Part shown: positions 19,664 through 45,375 of the stretch, piece after piece
Position numbering within the stretch: position 1 is the first letter of the stretch
Layout of the letters: the number at the start of each line of letters is the position of its first letter
Origin: a virus
Lineage: Duplodnaviria; Caudoviricetes
Reading direction: 5' to 3' (one strand)
IMG/VR virus record: IMGVR_UViG_3300021167_000382
Span: 128,001 to 192,000 of that record
Length of the DNA stretch: 64,000 nt
The notes under the pieces: model-generated
The model's input: only the letters and a program-made list of their open reading frames with translations
Database searches by the model: none
Told to the model about the DNA's origin: nothing
Made by a program: the position numbers and the translations under genes

Positions 19664-20324
19664 GGATACCTCCTAAGGTACCAGCGCGTTCCATCTGCTC
19701 AATAAAGAGCTTGCTAAGATCTTCGCGTTCTCTAACAGGTGCTTGACGATGGTCAGTGACTGTTTTCTTAGCCACCTGCTCACCTGACGCTGTAACGCTA
19801 ACCGTTTCAATTTTCGAATAACCCTTGTTGAGGATATTGAAGAAGTTGATAGTCTGTATACCAGCAAAGGCATGGCTATGAACTGCCGCACGCTCTTGCT
19901 CAGTAAAGATAGACTTCGCTTTGTCATAGACGATACTAGCAAACTTATCCAGGTCCACCAAGTCTTCTAGAAGTTCTTTATTACTTCCATTGATAGTGAA
20001 CCGAATGAACTCACCTGTCTTAACGAGGTGACGTTGAATGATCTCGTAGATCTCGGCACAGTCTTGATAGTTAGCAACTTTAACCGTGACACCCTTCCGC
20101 CACATCTCAAACATAGCGTCAATCGAGAGCTCGCTGTCGATCTCATAGCTTTCAATCGTGGCATCGATGGAAGGCACGCCTGAAACCCGTACGCCATAGC
20201 GTCGAAGATTTTCCGGGCTACGGGATTGGAAGTGACGATACCGGACCGCATAGTAGCGTTCAAAGAGGTCTCGGTGATCGTAGTGGAGTTTTTGATTCAT
20301 CTCAATAGTATCCAGCAACCGCAT
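19647..20324 (-). CDS. Conserved jumbo-phage protein (virion operon)
   Basis: 225-aa ORF overlapping both neighbours. Confidence 0.55.
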   Translation of the reverse strand: MRLLDTIEMNQKLHYDHRDLFERYYAVRYRHFQSRSPENLRRYGVRVSGVPSIDATIESYEIDSELSIDAMFEMWRKGVTVKVANYQDCAEIYEIIQRHLVKTGEFIRFTINGSNKELLEDLVDLDKFASIVYDKAKSIFTEQERAAVHSHAFAGIQTINFFNILNKGYSKIETVSVTASGEQVAKKTVTDHRQAPVREREDLSKLFIEQMERAGTLGGIHGKQE

Positions 20325-22359: not shown

Positions 22360-22418
22360 TCAGAGCTCCTTTATTCACTTTATCTCGACTCTGTTACAAA
22401 AGAAAAAAGAAAGGTTGA

Positions 22419-22451
22419 CCAGAGTGCCGGGGTTTCCCCTCAGCACTCTAG
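22419..22451 (-). terminator. Hairpin terminator closing the structured-RNA unit
   Basis: AGAGTGC..GGGG-AAA-CCCC.GCACTCT stem, with a U-rich tract a few nt further on the minus strand. Confidence 0.65.
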
Positions 22452-22735
22452 CTAGACGATTCGCCGTCAGTCGTCAGACCGCCTCATCGAGGCATTGGTA
22501 TTCGCGGTGATTACGATCAACTGTAATCACCGGCTCTATCTCTTCACAGATCAAAGACTTGCTGCACAGTCTACTGTGAATACTTCGAGAAGGAACCAGG
22601 CTCTTGAACCCTGTATTAGTATGCAGACTTTAGTATGGTACTTGGAGACTACTAGGTACTTCAGGTGATGCTATACTACTTGGGTTTTATATCCGTTACA
22701 CGCCACGGGATCGGGCGACCGGTCTTTGCCGATTG
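22452..22735 (-). ncRNA. Putative structured non-coding RNA (3' tract)
   Basis: No convincing ORF; stems CGGTGATTAC/GTAATCACCG, TTCACAG/CTGTGAA with inner AGACT/AGTCT, GCCTC/GAGGC, all enclosed by AGACCG/CGGTCT. Confidence 0.5.
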
Positions 22736-23089
22736 TCAGGTCAACGAAGTACCCCGTTCCTTCAAGAATCGAAGGATCGCTACACCGGTGTATTTATCAC
22801 CGGAAGTAGTTTGAAAGTAGATAGCATTGAAATGCATCTCTTTACTTTCAAAGGCTTTACGAAACTCAGCTACTGTCTCGTAATCGTAGAATGCAATGTC
22901 CCATTCAGAACCATAGCTCCGAATAGTAAATTGCATCCCAGGCGATTCCAGGCACCAGGTCCCCTTGATAGGAGTCTTGCGCCAAGAATTACCAAACCGC
23001 TTGACAAGATCGTCAACGGCGCCGCCTTGACCGATGCCACCGATTAATTCCGGTTTGACATCAGGTAAAACAAAATCTACTAACTCCAT
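22736..23089 (-). CDS. Small hypothetical protein embedded between structured RNA tracts
   Basis: 117-aa ORF with strong TAAGGAGGT RBS. Confidence 0.75.
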   Translation of the reverse strand: MELVDFVLPDVKPELIGGIGQGGAVDDLVKRFGNSWRKTPIKGTWCLESPGMQFTIRSYGSEWDIAFYDYETVAEFRKAFESKEMHFNAIYFQTTSGDKYTGVAILRFLKERGTSLT

Positions 23090-23099
23090 ACGACCTCCT

Positions 23100-23337
23100 T
23101 AAAGGAAAGAGCGAGAGTGCCCAAAGTATGAATAGGGTATATACCAACCCGTGGTGGTTTCCGATGGCGCTAGTCGGATTGCTATTTACGAAGAGGCGAG
23201 TCTTCAACCTAGACTATAGAGTCACCTAGGAAACTTACTACATGTAGGAAGTTCAGCGGATGTAAAGCTGGCCTTTTCACGATGCTCCCTCGGGATAACA
23301 TCTATGAAACGGTGCCTCATCATAACTTCCTACATGT
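23100..23337 (-). ncRNA. Putative structured 5' leader / ncRNA
   Basis: Perfect 14-bp inverted repeat ACATGTAGGAAGTT (23240-23253 / 23324-23337) enclosing three hairpins, followed by further hairpins (CCTAG/CTAGG, GAAGA/TCTTC, TCCGA/TCGGA); starts right at a promoter motif. Confidence 0.55.
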
Positions 23338-23350
23338 TAAATATACATGA
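23337..23350 (-). promoter_or_regulatory. Early (virion RNAP) promoter motif TCATGTATATTTAA
   Basis: One of nine intergenic copies of YCAYRTATATnnnA, all on the minus strand at operon starts. Confidence 0.7.
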
Positions 23351-23382
23351 GTGAAATACTTTAAGTACAGGAAAGAAAAAAT

Positions 23383-23410
23383 GAGATCAGGGGAGAAATC
23401 CCCTGATCTC
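23383..23410 (-). terminator. Rho-independent terminator
   Basis: GAGATCAGGGG/CCCCTGATCTC stem followed by a U-rich tract. Confidence 0.75.
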
Positions 23411-23449
23411 ACCATTTGTGATAGATGGATGCTAGATTTGAAATCTGAA

Positions 23450-24142
23450 CTATGTAGCACCGGCGTTAGTTTTCGATTTCTGAATATCGTGAAGTTGTTT
23501 CTTAAAATCATCAATATACTTCATGACATCGGATAATTTCCAATACCGAACACCATTCTCGCTCTTACAATGTATAACCTTGTTCATTCGAAGAATGACC
23601 TTACCTAGTATCTCGAAATCATCAGTGAAAATCCCAGAATCAACGAGGCAGTTATGAAGACCCTTAATGTCAACTACAGCATCTTCCTCTAATTGAAAAG
23701 GAGGTGGTATTGGTTGCGCATTTTCTATTTTGATAGCGTCAATGGAAATCAACCTTATCTCGACCAGTCGAATGGCGTCGTTGTCACCTTTCTCCATCGC
23801 AGCAGTGCTCCGAGGACGAAACGCGATTAAGTTATTTTGAAACAAGTTATAGAGGCTATTCCCTGCAGGGCCAGCGACTGGTTTTATCGTTGCCATAACA
23901 AGACCCGTGGTTTCTTCGATGTAGACATCGGTAACCTTGTGAGTGATATCTTCCCCATTAAGAATGAGTACATCATCCTTCGAAAGATTCTCATAAGTAT
24001 CTACCACCGTACCGTAGAGCCGACCTTTACATTCATCGATAGCCTTGACCATCGCTGCACGCGTGTAAATTCGTTTATTTGAGTCAGGTGTTCCTACTCG
24101 GCAAATTTCAACTTTGAATTCTGTTTGTTCTGAAGCGGTCAT
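23450..24142 (-). CDS. Prohead protease-fold protein (T4 gp21/phiKZ gp175-like), probably inactive
   Basis: SNKRIY...RLYG...ITHKV...KPVAGPAG..L..L.....AFRPRS pattern matches the fold; the expected catalytic Ser position reads Arg. Confidence 0.55.
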   Translation of the reverse strand: MTASEQTEFKVEICRVGTPDSNKRIYTRAAMVKAIDECKGRLYGTVVDTYENLSKDDVLILNGEDITHKVTDVYIEETTGLVMATIKPVAGPAGNSLYNLFQNNLIAFRPRSTAAMEKGDNDAIRLVEIRLISIDAIKIENAQPIPPPFQLEEDAVVDIKGLHNCLVDSGIFTDDFEILGKVILRMNKVIHCKSENGVRYWKLSDVMKYIDDFKKQLHDIQKSKTNAGAT

Positions 24143-42869: not shown

Positions 42870-42875
42870 AGGGGA

Positions 42876-45375
42876 TTAACCTCCTTGATGGGTGGCTTGA
42901 GCTGCATCCCGACGACTACGCCGCAACCATTCAGAGGTTGAAGCGATCACACTGTCCGTCATCGAGGCATTTTTCGAGAGTTCCAATGGTTTATCGAGCA
43001 ACAGCAAGTTGAAATGAGGGCGGAATGGGTAATACAGATCTTCCATGAAATGGTCCATGGCTGGCATGAAATTAACTTCGTCTACTAGTTACGTGGACTA
43101 TATCTTAGCAAGCATAGCTCGCTCCCCCCGTTTCGGAACAGTGTCTCTCGACAGTAATCCCTACTCTACTCGGTTCGTCTCCCGACGCCTTTCGATAGTC
43201 TCTGAACGTTCACCAGTTAAGGCGCTTCGCTGCTGATTGTACCTGACTCTCGATTTTCAAGCATATCGCGCTCACCGTTTCCAGTCACGCTGTAGCTCAA
43301 GAGCTTCATGGGTAGTTTCCAGCAATTAGAGGGGTTTAACGACGGCAACGTTATTTCTTTCTACCGTCATAGTCCTTATTGTCCAACTAAGTCGCCTATT
43401 AGTCTTAGTTCGGTGTGCGTCGACACCCGCACGACATCTCTGCCGTGAACAGATCATATCTTCACCTTCACCCGTGGTGGTAAGGTGCTTCCTTTTTCTT
43501 CCCCTCAGTGGCTTAGGGGTTCTACTCTACTCGGTTCGTCTCCCGACGCCTTTCAATGATCGTTGAACGTTCACCCTCCCGGGTGCTTCGCTGCGGGTTA
43601 TCTAAACTCAACTTCTTTTACCATACCCAGTTAGTTAAGCTGGCCGCGCACCACTTTCGTTTATGCGTTTGGTGTGTTGAGTAATAAAGACTTTCCCGTC
43701 AATTAAGGAAGATTCACTCTGATTTTTTCAAACCAGGTGGCCTGAGGTATCCCCAGCATTCATGGAAGTTGCGATAAGATCCGAAATTGAGACTGTAGTG
43801 TCAAGAGGGTTAGTCTTGAACTTGGTAATTCGCACTGTCTCAGCCGAACCTTGCATCAGAGATGGCTTTTGTCCATTCAGTTCGCTAGACTGAACCGGTA
43901 CGCTAGGTACCTGCTATAGCTTTCACTATAGAACAGACTATATCTTAACCTTCACCCTTGGTGGTCAGGTTCTCCCGTTCACCGCGCTTGCGGTACCTAG
44001 TCGTTGAGCACACACCTTACCCTCTCGGGCTATAGGCGCTTCGCTGCGGATTTCCCAATACACGTCTCTTTTACCATACCTGAGTGATTAGTTCAGCCGC
44101 ATAGTCTCTTTCGAGCGTATGCTTGGTGTACGTGTCTCTAAGGGGGTCCCCGTCAGTTAGAGAGATTTTACAGTAGTATTTCTACTACAGGCAACCGAGT
44201 TGATTGCGTTGGATGGTACTGATGATCGCACCATGACGACTACCCTTGATCAGATCCTGCATCATGGCATCCAGCTTCGGATGATATTTCCCAACATGAT
44301 CCATGAGGAAGTTGGTTGCTTCACCATGGGTCATACCGCCATGAGGATGATCTCGTCGGAGTAGAACGGCCATATGGTGCTGCCACCAGACTGTAACCCC
44401 AACACCCCAAGGCACATGGATCTCGTCATACTCATGAATCCCGTCATGCGAGGTGATCACCGCTCGGAAGCTATAGTTACCTCGTGTCCCATACACATGC
44501 TTCCGATACGTCCCAGTCTTGGGGCGAAGGTTGGTAGCGATGTAGTTTTCGTAGTAATCACACAACATCAGCAGAATCTTAGCAGTCCGATTCTCAATAA
44601 CAGTCGGGGTCTTGTCATGATAGTCGGTGTCAATGCTCAGCATCGTGTTCATGATGTTGTGCATGTCCAGTACGTGGGATTCTACGAAACGACCCAGGTC
44701 ATTGGCTTCCACCACCAACAGCGCACGATTGATCAGTGGTAGATAGTTGCAGAAGATGAGATGCCGGTGCGTCTGGACAAAGTATTCCAGTGGGTCAGTG
44801 TCTGGCGGCACACCGACCATATCCCGAGTTGTCTTGTGCAGATGGCTCTTGGTCACGAACTCCCCAGACCGGATGAGGTAGGAGAAGATCTCGTCAAACT
44901 GCCGAATGAAGTTATTCAAACCACGTGGGAGGCCGTCCGAGATCATCTTCGTTAAGATCGCTGGCCGTGCTTGCGGCACATAGCTTCGATCAATCAGCCA
45001 GCGGATGATGTTGCAACCCTTCTTACTGAAACGATGTTGAAGCATGATCAGTACATGCGGAACGATCAACGCATCAACACCCATCGGCTTACGGAACCAG
45101 AGCATGGACTTGATATCATCTTTGATGGATTGTTCCACAGGGGTCTTACAGGATTCACACAGCATACCCACATACTGCTCGCCACGGAGTTCACCGCAGC
45201 GACACTTCGGCATCATGGTGACCATATCCGCGGTATGTGTCTCCTTGATCAGCCAGTTAAAATATTCACGATCCCTTTCTGTTCTATTTGGAAGATCGTT
45301 GATGATGATGACTTCGTTCGGCGGAAGCGTTTCGAAATCCCTATTGTAGTTGACAAGTTCTTGAAAAACCGGCAC
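42876..45375 (-). CDS. rpoC: Non-virion RNA polymerase beta' subunit, N-terminal catalytic part (phiKZ gp55/56.1-like); spliced from 4 exons: 45375-44203, 43865-43755, 43374-43363, 43082-42876 (500 aa)
   Basis: CRCG..CESC zinc finger, K.G.YRKHVYGTR..FRAVI; joined exons restore QRN|PSLMQGS and MNA|DYDG|DEVN (NADxDGD). Confidence 0.9.
43083..43362 (-). ncRNA. Group I intron 3 (280 nt, no ORF; apparent terminal A)
   Basis: P1 exon GACGGU / intron GCCGUC; P AAUUGCUGGAAA, Q AAUCAGCAGC, R UCAGAGACUA, S AAGAUAUAGUC. Confidence 0.88.
43375..43754 (-). ncRNA. Group I intron 2 (380 nt, no ORF)
   Basis: Follows exon U, ends in G; P AAUUGACGGGAAA, Q AACCCGCAGC, R UCAACGAUCA, S AAGAUAUGAUC (compensatory P7 change). 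Confidence 0.9.
43866..44202 (-). ncRNA. Group I intron 1 (337 nt, no ORF)
   Basis: P1 exon GCAAU / intron GUUGC; ends in G; P AACUGACGGGGA, Q AAUCCGCAGC, R UCAACGACUA, S AAGAUAUAGUC. Confidence 0.92.

Follow-up and report, generated by a model that had tools for sequence, protein, structure and literature searches.

A conserved 46-nucleotide sequence behind an orphan, predicted early gene of an uncultured phiKZ-like jumbo phage

Layout of the ORF117 unit

We analysed a 64,000-nucleotide (nt) stretch of viral DNA (the window), comprising bases 128001–192000 of a 210,129-bp IMG/VR virus record with direct terminal repeats (IMGVR_UViG_3300021167_000382; genome G000). Within it lies a unit consisting, in order, of a promoter motif, a 250-nt leader, an open reading frame (ORF) of 117 amino acids (aa; ORF117), a 3′ tract of ~320 nt and a terminator hairpin. 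A sequence-only reading of the window had described this unit as self-contained, and all five of its parts were found. What that reading did not have is a 46-nt element past the stop codon, here called block A, nor a cluster of AGUA[CG][CU] motifs further downstream. Comparison of related contigs indicates that block A is under strong purifying selection and is inherited with the ORF117 subfamily across phage contexts, and the unit is best read as a monocistronic cassette for an early gene, in an uncultured jumbo phage of phiKZ-like type. Its features are listed below in the direction of the gene; L numbers denote related loci, and z scores compare predicted folding energies with those of shuffled sequences.

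23380–23413, minus strand: intrinsic terminator behind the 230-aa gene upstream, where the unit has its 5′ boundary; 15-bp stem then a T-run, with a 13-nt perfect inverted repeat
23337–23356, minus strand: promoter motif TTTCACTCATGTATATTTAA, predicted early class; 11 genomic copies, also in L003, L004 and L018
23238–23339, minus strand: 5′-terminal hairpin domain, ~100 nt; z −6.27, perfect 14-bp stem, not in L003
23090–23237, minus strand: remaining leader; z +0.74, Shine-Dalgarno AAGGAGG at 23100–23094, no homologue or coding signal
22736–23089, minus strand: ORF117, a conserved orphan phage protein with homologues; AlphaFold2 predicted local distance difference test (pLDDT) 87
22693–22738, minus strand: block A, 46-nt element of the 3′ untranslated region (3′UTR); hairpins H1 (22733–22718) and H2 (22708–22693)
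22612–22692, minus strand: A/C-rich, G-poor tract; AGUA[CG][CU] at 22680–22675, 22660–22655, 22653–22648 and 22642–22637
22592–22611, minus strand: block B GGGUUCAAGAGCCUGGUUCC, conserved only with L003–L005; 19 of 20 bases identical, one A/G change
22476–22591, minus strand: variable hairpin region; ~30–45% identity, not alignable with the relative, hairpins similarly placed and different in sequence
22451–22475, minus strand: block C GACGACUGACGGCGAAUCGUCUAGC, conserved only with L003–L005; 24 of 25 bases identical
22398–22449, minus strand: terminator hairpin (22449–22421), conserved spacer GGUCAACCU and U-run; three compensatory pairs relative to L003

The genes surrounding the unit are on the minus strand. 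Upstream, the 230-aa gene stops at 23450, and a clean terminator of its own follows (23413–23380). The head-to-tail joining protein encoded at 20302–21663 matches Pfam families of phiKZ-like phages and is at most 31% identical to GenBank phages, its matches being jumbo phages of Pseudomonas, Erwinia, Ralstonia and Xanthomonas.

The promoter motif spans 20 nt around a TGTATAT core and occurs 11 times in the 210-kb genome when up to 4 mismatches are allowed, always on the minus strand, which is the coding strand. Each copy lies 40–250 nt upstream of an ORF with a Shine-Dalgarno sequence, usually just past a T-rich terminator tail. Four copies fall in the window (23356–23337, 56601–56582, 59826–59807 and 61865–61846) and seven elsewhere in G000 (30914, 33224, 70385, 86889, 96331, 101360 and 200693); the same motif is present in the relatives L003, L004 and L018. 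According to a review of jumbo-phage RNA polymerases, an AT-rich conserved motif of ~10 nt near position −10 of early operons is detectable bioinformatically in each such phage, middle and late promoters not being predictable in this way (PMC7598289). Because TTTCACTCATGTATATTTAA fits this description, we accept, as an inference, that it is an early-class promoter. The leaders behind the other ten copies are 40–91 nt long and often open with a small GGAUAC...GUAUCC hairpin. Many predicted transcripts of this promoter class start CAUGUCCCUGGAUAC...GUAUCC and carry the ribosome-binding site UAGGAGAUUU. In L001, L002 and L006 the ORF117 homologues are likewise preceded by a terminator and by each phage's own AT-rich motif (ACATATATAATAGTTG), so the family seems to be a stand-alone early gene wherever it is present.

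Searches for known RNA classes agreed with the sequence-only reading, which had recognised no tRNA, intron core or repeat array. ARAGORN found no tRNA or transfer-messenger RNA in the 64-kb window. An Rfam search up to E 10 gave no match in the unit, the reported matches lying on terminators nearby, within ORF117 or on the other strand; no group I or group II intron core appeared up to the same threshold, and the unit is bounded by an upstream stop and a terminator and has its own promoter. Tandem Repeats Finder returned a single 7-nt A-rich unit in 2.1 copies, and the repeat search revealed no direct array. The two largest ORF-free gaps of the genome, on a crude ORF map, lie elsewhere, at 42870–44184 of the window (1315 nt) and 192180–193771 of G000 (1592 nt).

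Block A and the ORF117 family

Block A is found 0–10 nt past the ORF stop in seven of the eight contexts of the close ORF117 subfamily. The seven sequences are those of the window, L003, L001, L002, L006, L007 and L008; L001 and L002 are near-identical (their ORFs match at 100% of nucleotides) and count as separate among the seven, and L004 and L005 share the arrangement of L003. The element begins UGACAAYCGGMAAAGACCGGUC and continues for ~24 more bases ending in CGG, and in the window its UGA is the stop codon of ORF117. Mean pairwise identities across the seven sequences place it well above the gene that it follows:

ORF117, amino acids: 63%
ORF117, nucleotides: 65%
ORF117, third codon positions: 47%
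46-nt element: 86%
First 25 nt of the element: 95%

The neighbouring genes differ among the contigs that carry block A, the L001/L002 pair aside, and the element is nevertheless kept behind ORF117 genes, from which we conclude that it travels with the gene. A covariance model built from it found exactly one copy per genome, always behind an ORF117-subfamily gene.

The conserved sequence is not coding: its variable positions lack a period of three, stops occur in all frames and there is no tblastx signal. Reading block A in frame had seemed to give conservative substitutions, which prompted the idea of a translated peptide; this was rejected, since variation falls evenly on all three codon positions and the phages differ in the frame of the element relative to the ORF. 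A selenocysteine insertion sequence (SECIS) or readthrough signal was also rejected, the conserved UGA being out of frame with the ORF in L001, L006 and L007.

As a sequence family the 46-nt element is new, with no counterpart in Rfam, in GenBank phages, in IMG/VR or in the JGI metagenome contigs that were scanned. Rfam gave no match on block A in the window or in five homologous loci. Exact-pattern scans of IMG/VR for blocks A, B and C returned nothing or one match within an unrelated coding region, and a metagenome scan gave five matches, all in G+C-rich bacterial coding sequence and with no further similarity. Among 185,579 prokaryote species, represented by one genome each, there were two matches (both in metagenome-assembled genomes of Acidobacteria), approximately the number expected by chance on our own rough estimate. 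Searching by synteny through the neighbouring 204-aa gene led to more distant homologues in other contexts, without the RNA.

The alignment is well described by two small hairpins. H1 has the form AUCGG-CAAAGA-CCGGU, and H2 consists of CCGN, an 8-nt loop and N′CGG (CCGU and ACGG in the window). Under this model 98.4% of alignment cells are paired, falling to 10–44% when the partners are slid against one another, and its score was reached by 4 of 500 shuffles. The sole change in the H1 stem converts U.G to C-G and so keeps the pairing, and pair 34:43 of H2 covaries, being AU in four sequences, UA in two and CG in one. Both differences between L001 and L002 are located in loops, as are the other differences. 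H1 was present in the minimum free energy (MFE) fold of all six sequences folded. An alternative register of H2 (columns 25–31 with 40–46 of alignment A6) was discarded, since its inner pairs are broken in most sequences.

ORF117 itself (23089–22736, minus strand) has the sequence AAGGAGG six bases ahead of its ATG, bearing out the strong ribosome-binding site described earlier, and it belongs to a family of homologues. There are 13 close homologues at 48–66% identity and ~50 representative clusters (50% identity) in a profile search of 1.84 billion proteins; the L003/L004 homologue is 60% identical in alignment A4 and 66% by BLASTP. Judged by these comparisons, the family is real and under selection. 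No match was found in Pfam, PHROGs, PADLOC or a PDB sequence profile. The AlphaFold2 model is confident (pLDDT 87), and fold searches with it gave no significant match: the best Foldseek E values were 0.086 against PDB and 0.02 against BFVD, with none at E <= 0.001, and the best VIA-align wide Z was 4.4, to unrelated small alpha/beta proteins. Levivirus coat proteins were considered as relatives and not relied upon, their Foldseek matches (E 0.09–1.1; template modelling score 0.2–0.25) not being significant. No GenBank phage carried either ORF117 or the RNA in blastn and tblastn searches with the tract and three family members, and protein-based locus searches in IMG/VR found nothing. By its predicted model ORF117 is a small alpha/beta protein, an orphan met with only on contigs of uncultured phages. 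In three longer proteins, P0052 (246 aa), P0054 (296 aa) and P0062 (277 aa), an ORF117-like domain occupies the C-terminus, and the N-terminal part of each has no Pfam domain.

The leader and the 3′ extension

The leader was expected to be ~240 nt long, opening with a perfect 14-bp stem and continuing with several more hairpins. It is ~250 nt long (whole leader z −1.85), and the stem is borne out: a perfect 14-bp inverted repeat pairs 23337–23324 with 23253–23240, 70 nt apart, within a first ~100 nt that folds at −41.6 kcal/mol against −21.0 +/- 3.3 kcal/mol for shuffled sequences (z −6.27), with none of 200 shuffles as stable. The MFE fold of this part is one long irregular hairpin. The further hairpins did not survive comparison with shuffles, the remaining 148 nt (23237–23090) showing no excess stability (z +0.74). 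Past the promoter, the leader has no similar sequence elsewhere in the genome or in the related loci fetched. In the closest relative (L003/L004) a 107-aa gene stands between the same promoter and the ORF117 homologue, and the hairpin domain is not present in L003. The 5′ hairpin is thus real but lineage-specific, known from this phage.

Stabiliser hairpins at the 5′ end of bacterial and phage mRNAs, such as that of the ompA 5′UTR, offer a precedent. The resemblance lies in a stable stem at or adjoining the predicted first transcribed bases, and transcripts of the sister promoters also start with small hairpins. Relative to those sister leaders, however, the present domain of ~100 nt with its perfect 14-bp stem is far larger, and the 3′ arm of the stem is half of a 22-bp near-palindrome. 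The near-palindrome (AACTTCCTACATGTAGTAAGTT, 23232–23253) could be a DNA operator; counting in a further copy where the transcript starts, there are three ACATGTAG[G/T]AAGTT-like half-sites. The 107-aa gene (L003 733–1056) has a 51%-identical homologue at G000 95925–96257 (minus strand), behind another copy of the same promoter, and early genes evidently move between promoter-headed units.

Downstream of block A the loci take two forms. In L001, L002, L006, L007 and L008 an intrinsic terminator follows 6–8 nt past the element, and the extra 240–280 nt are present only in the window and in L003–L005. Between the window and L003, neighbouring genes are ~35–45% identical in nucleotides (essentially unalignable), the ORF 60–70%, and blocks A and C ~90%. 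Near-identity extends to block B (20 nt), to block C (25 nt) and to the spacer with its U-run, and the sequence between them has diverged with indels. A T/A plus A/T swap in block C relative to L003 keeps a local 3-bp stem; the signs of structure obtained by comparison in this extension rest on two sequences. The UUCRA in block B is a mere resemblance to a T-loop.

Between blocks A and B, the A/C-rich tract contains 12–13% G and carries AGUA[CG][CU] four times in the window and five times in L003, at the same place. No denser cluster of the motif exists on either strand of the 210-kb genome, whose background density is ~1 per kb. The positions of the copies cannot be aligned between the two phages, which suggests that selection acts on the copies themselves. 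Protein-sponge RNAs such as CsrB and RsmZ contain repeated short motifs in a comparable way: here 4–5 copies lie in 45–70 nt of non-coding sequence, kept in two lineages at unaligned positions. The copies are far fewer than in CsrB/RsmZ, however, and the tract belongs to an mRNA 3′UTR. We know of no binding site that AGUA[CG][CU] matches.

The nested 3′ hairpins proposed for this tract fared unevenly. Its z score is −3.87 with the terminator hairpin and −2.02 without it (7 of 200 shuffles as stable), and the tract of L003 scores −0.15; the terminator hairpin stands, and excess folding apart from it is weak. The proposed closure by AGACCG/CGGTCT does occur in the MFE fold of this phage, but it has a central mismatch in L003 and competes with H1, which is conserved in seven sequences. 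The terminator stem (22449–22421) is kept in the relative through three compensatory pairs and is followed by a conserved 9-nt spacer and then the U-run. It is absent from a consensus terminator scan because the spacer separates the stem from the U-run, and the terminator proposed earlier is thus upheld as a hairpin, less so as a consensus signal. In the RNAalifold fold, block B (AGAG..GGUU) is joined to the spacer and U-run, both conserved (AACCUyUCU), and two one-sided changes keep this pairing. Separately, the last ORF117 codons (GUUGACCUGA, 22745–22736) are complementary to the post-stem spacer (UCUGGUCAAC, 22423–22414); this helix would close the whole 3′ tract just ahead of the U-run, and it is not conserved in L003.

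The checks that accompanied the sequence-only reading thus gave a divided answer. Folding against shuffles singles out the first ~100 nt of the leader and fails for the rest of it, with little excess in the 3′ tract; covariation in the flanks amounts to one pair in block A, beside the compensatory changes in the terminator stem and block C that rest on two sequences, and the leader is not conserved in the nearest relative. Most of the large flanks described as structured RNA either occur in this phage alone or have no more structure than chance would give. Decay from coding sequence was one of the outcomes that would have counted against that reading, and tblastx gave no such signal in any frame of the flanks. 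This bears on the idea that two stretches, and those only, have no function: the part of the leader that follows the hairpin, and whatever is variable in the 3′ extension. They could be left over, for instance from the loss of a gene like the 107-aa one. L003 does have that gene at the leader position, a homologue lies elsewhere in this genome, and the parts concerned are neither conserved nor more structured than expected. On the other hand, no remnant of the 107-aa gene or residual protein similarity was detected in any frame, and block A, block B, block C, the motif cluster and the 5′ hairpin would be left unexplained. We regard the leftover explanation as possible for these parts, although doubtful.

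Interpretation and relation to known systems

Block A is inherited together with the gene and is more constrained than the gene, and some functional link between this RNA and the ORF117 gene is therefore likely. We favour a monocistronic early cassette with a cis-acting RNA element in its 3′UTR, and would give this an even chance of being correct. The transcript would open with a very stable, phage-specific hairpin of ~100 nt, most likely protecting the mRNA 5′ end from decay. Block A, with its two small hairpins 0–10 nt past the stop, would act in cis as an RNA signal at the message's 3′ end; the element always lies within the predicted transcript, ahead of the terminator. Its strong sequence conservation combined with modest structure points to recognition by a protein, most likely through both sequence and shape, rather than to a self-contained fold. 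The simplest candidate binders would be ORF117's own product, an RNA chaperone or an RNase, and binding would set mRNA stability or 3′ processing. Block A is within reach of a terminating ribosome, which would sit over the 5′ arm of H1; translating the ORF would therefore unfold H1 and so be coupled to the state of the element. The extra 240–280 nt would be a lineage-specific extension of the 3′UTR and may add protein-binding sites.

Several observations weigh against this reading. The covariation consists of one pair in seven sequences, two of which (L001 and L002) are near-identical, and shared ancestry inflates the shuffle test. The stability of block A is ordinary (z −1.1 to +1.1 in six sequences), and its invariant 8-bp palindrome, GACCGGTC, would equally suit a double-stranded DNA site. 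The more distant homologues P0013, P0040 and P0046 have no block A behind the gene, so an ORF117-type protein does not need the element. Fold searches found no recognisable RNA-binding fold in ORF117, and the family is near-neutral (isoelectric point 5.1–8.5). Blocks B and C are known from two lineages only. Finally, the transcription start site, 3′ end and RNA stability of the unit are all predictions from the DNA.

The 3′ end could instead be the source of a trans-acting, 3′UTR-derived small RNA (sRNA), with the conserved 25 nt as seed, the terminator as stable 3′ end and the long form as an enlarged version. A conserved block, a spacer and a terminator are the usual layout of such RNAs, of which CpxQ, SdhX and DapZ are bacterial examples, and the arrangement (shared mRNA 3′ end and terminator, conserved block upstream) is found in L001, L002, L006, L007 and L008. 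In these five short-form contexts the conserved block, a 6–8-nt spacer and an intrinsic terminator with a U-tail make up ~85–90 nt. As in CpxQ, SdhX and DapZ, the short block at the mRNA end is more conserved than the coding region and has its own terminator directly after it, and very high sequence conservation with weak structure would suit a base-pairing seed. Unlike in those cases, the element here is a predicted one for which no target was found, and it belongs to a lytic jumbo phage with its own RNA polymerases. The phage genome contains no complementary stretch of at least 13 nt, its single 12-mer match being within chance; the scan of prokaryote genomes described above did no better than chance; and H1 takes up part of the conserved block, which is to that extent not free. 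Reports of small RNAs in phiKZ-like phages exist (PMC11512511); none of those published for phiKZ or 201phi2-1 corresponds to block A (PMC11512511, PMC8244752). In these two phages the predicted small RNAs come mostly from premature termination in 5′UTRs; one of them, 201phi2-1 sRNA005 (the phiKZ gp182 5′UTR), is conserved upstream of a tail gene (PMC11512511, PMC8244752). Block A resembles it as a conserved non-coding RNA attached to a particular giant-phage gene, and differs in being a 3′UTR element behind an orphan early gene rather than a premature-termination product. We consider an sRNA origin unlikely.

Somewhat less probable, in our view, is a more specific form of partnership in which ORF117 and the 46-nt element make up a ribonucleoprotein, serving self-regulation or providing an RNA part of the protein's function, with the 3′UTR of this phage lineage enlarged to a protein-binding RNA of ~320 nt whose repeated AGUA[CG][CU] sites and blocks B and C would titrate a host or phage RNA-binding factor early in infection. 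Phage mRNAs do carry operator hairpins for proteins, among them the coat protein operator of MS2 and Qbeta and the RegA and gene 32 sites of T4. Block A shares with these a small conserved-loop hairpin on an mRNA, genetically linked to a small phage protein. It differs in that the known operators sit at translation starts whereas block A follows the stop codon, and in that binding by ORF117 is putative. More generally, the earlier proposal of an RNA-protein module persists in reduced form: an ORF subfamily and a short 3′ RNA element are co-inherited in seven of eight contexts, whereas most of the large structured flanks did not hold up. The forms in which that proposal was cast, a ribonucleoprotein or a decoy RNA against host defence, are speculative.

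A further alternative is that the conserved 3′ sequences control termination or readthrough into the downstream 204-aa gene, through the block A hairpins and the pairing of block B with the spacer. Block A always stands just ahead of a terminator, RNAalifold pairs block B with the spacer and U-run, and a conserved 9-nt spacer between stem and U-run is atypical of a plain terminator. The 204-aa gene has no promoter motif of its own in the window (22360–22397), while L003 has the promoter-like sequence CATCCGTGTACATTTATCATGACCC (1850–1948) ahead of its 199-aa gene; as DNA, the 204-aa and 199-aa genes can hardly be aligned. Against this, aids to termination seldom require 95% sequence conservation, the pairing of block B with the tail is drawn from two sequences, and the 204-aa gene may have a middle or late promoter of its own that is not recognisable by sequence (PMC7598289). 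On balance this explanation is quite improbable.

Block A might also work as double-stranded DNA, as a single-copy site for protein binding or recombination that is centred on GACCGGTC and marks or mobilises the cassette. The palindrome is invariant and present once per genome, the cassette occupies different genomic places in different phages, and thermodynamic support for an RNA structure is weak. However, the conserved site lies only on the 3′ side of the cassette, the 5′ side being each phage's own promoter, and a fixed position 0–10 nt past the stop, in the transcript and before the terminator, together with the compensatory pair in H2, fits RNA better. We give this explanation little credence.

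Last, the whole 940-nt transcript was proposed to be one large structured non-coding RNA or ribonucleoprotein scaffold with the ORF in a loop, or else a type III toxin–antitoxin-like pair; the comparative data appear largely to have refuted this already, and it is very improbable. In its favour are the strong 5′ hairpin, the conserved 3′ blocks and some long-range 5′–3′ pairs when the full transcript is folded (MFE). Against it, the nearest relative does not share the leader, a duplex between leader and 3′ tract is no better than shuffles (z +0.9), most homologues have short flanks of 110–170 nt, and there is neither a repeat array nor a nuclease-fold match for ORF117 in Foldseek or VIA-align. 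The unit does resemble ToxIN in having a small protein gene beside a non-coding RNA, bounded by promoter and terminator and set in a phage, but it lacks a tandem repeat array and a ToxN-like fold match, and its RNA lies downstream rather than upstream of the gene.

The layout of the cassette is thus of known kinds, namely 5′ stabiliser hairpins, mRNA operator hairpins and 3′UTR-derived sRNAs, and the sequence family is new. On the reading that we favour, that of a cis-acting 3′UTR element, block A is a candidate RNA motif outside Rfam, defined by comparison alone and tied to one orphan early protein family. The non-coding RNA biology of giant phages is almost unexplored, with a few small RNAs predicted from transcript maps (PMC11512511, PMC8244752). 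Block A is small enough for direct testing, the lineage-specific nature of the flanks steers bench work to the 46-nt element and the 5′ hairpin, and the predicted early units of this phage can be listed directly from the 11 promoter copies. Were the specific ribonucleoprotein to prove true, nucleus-forming jumbo phages would have a host-takeover module of a new type, made of RNA and protein. Should the protein and the RNA interact, this orphan family, so far met in uncultured phages alone, would gain its first lead to a function.

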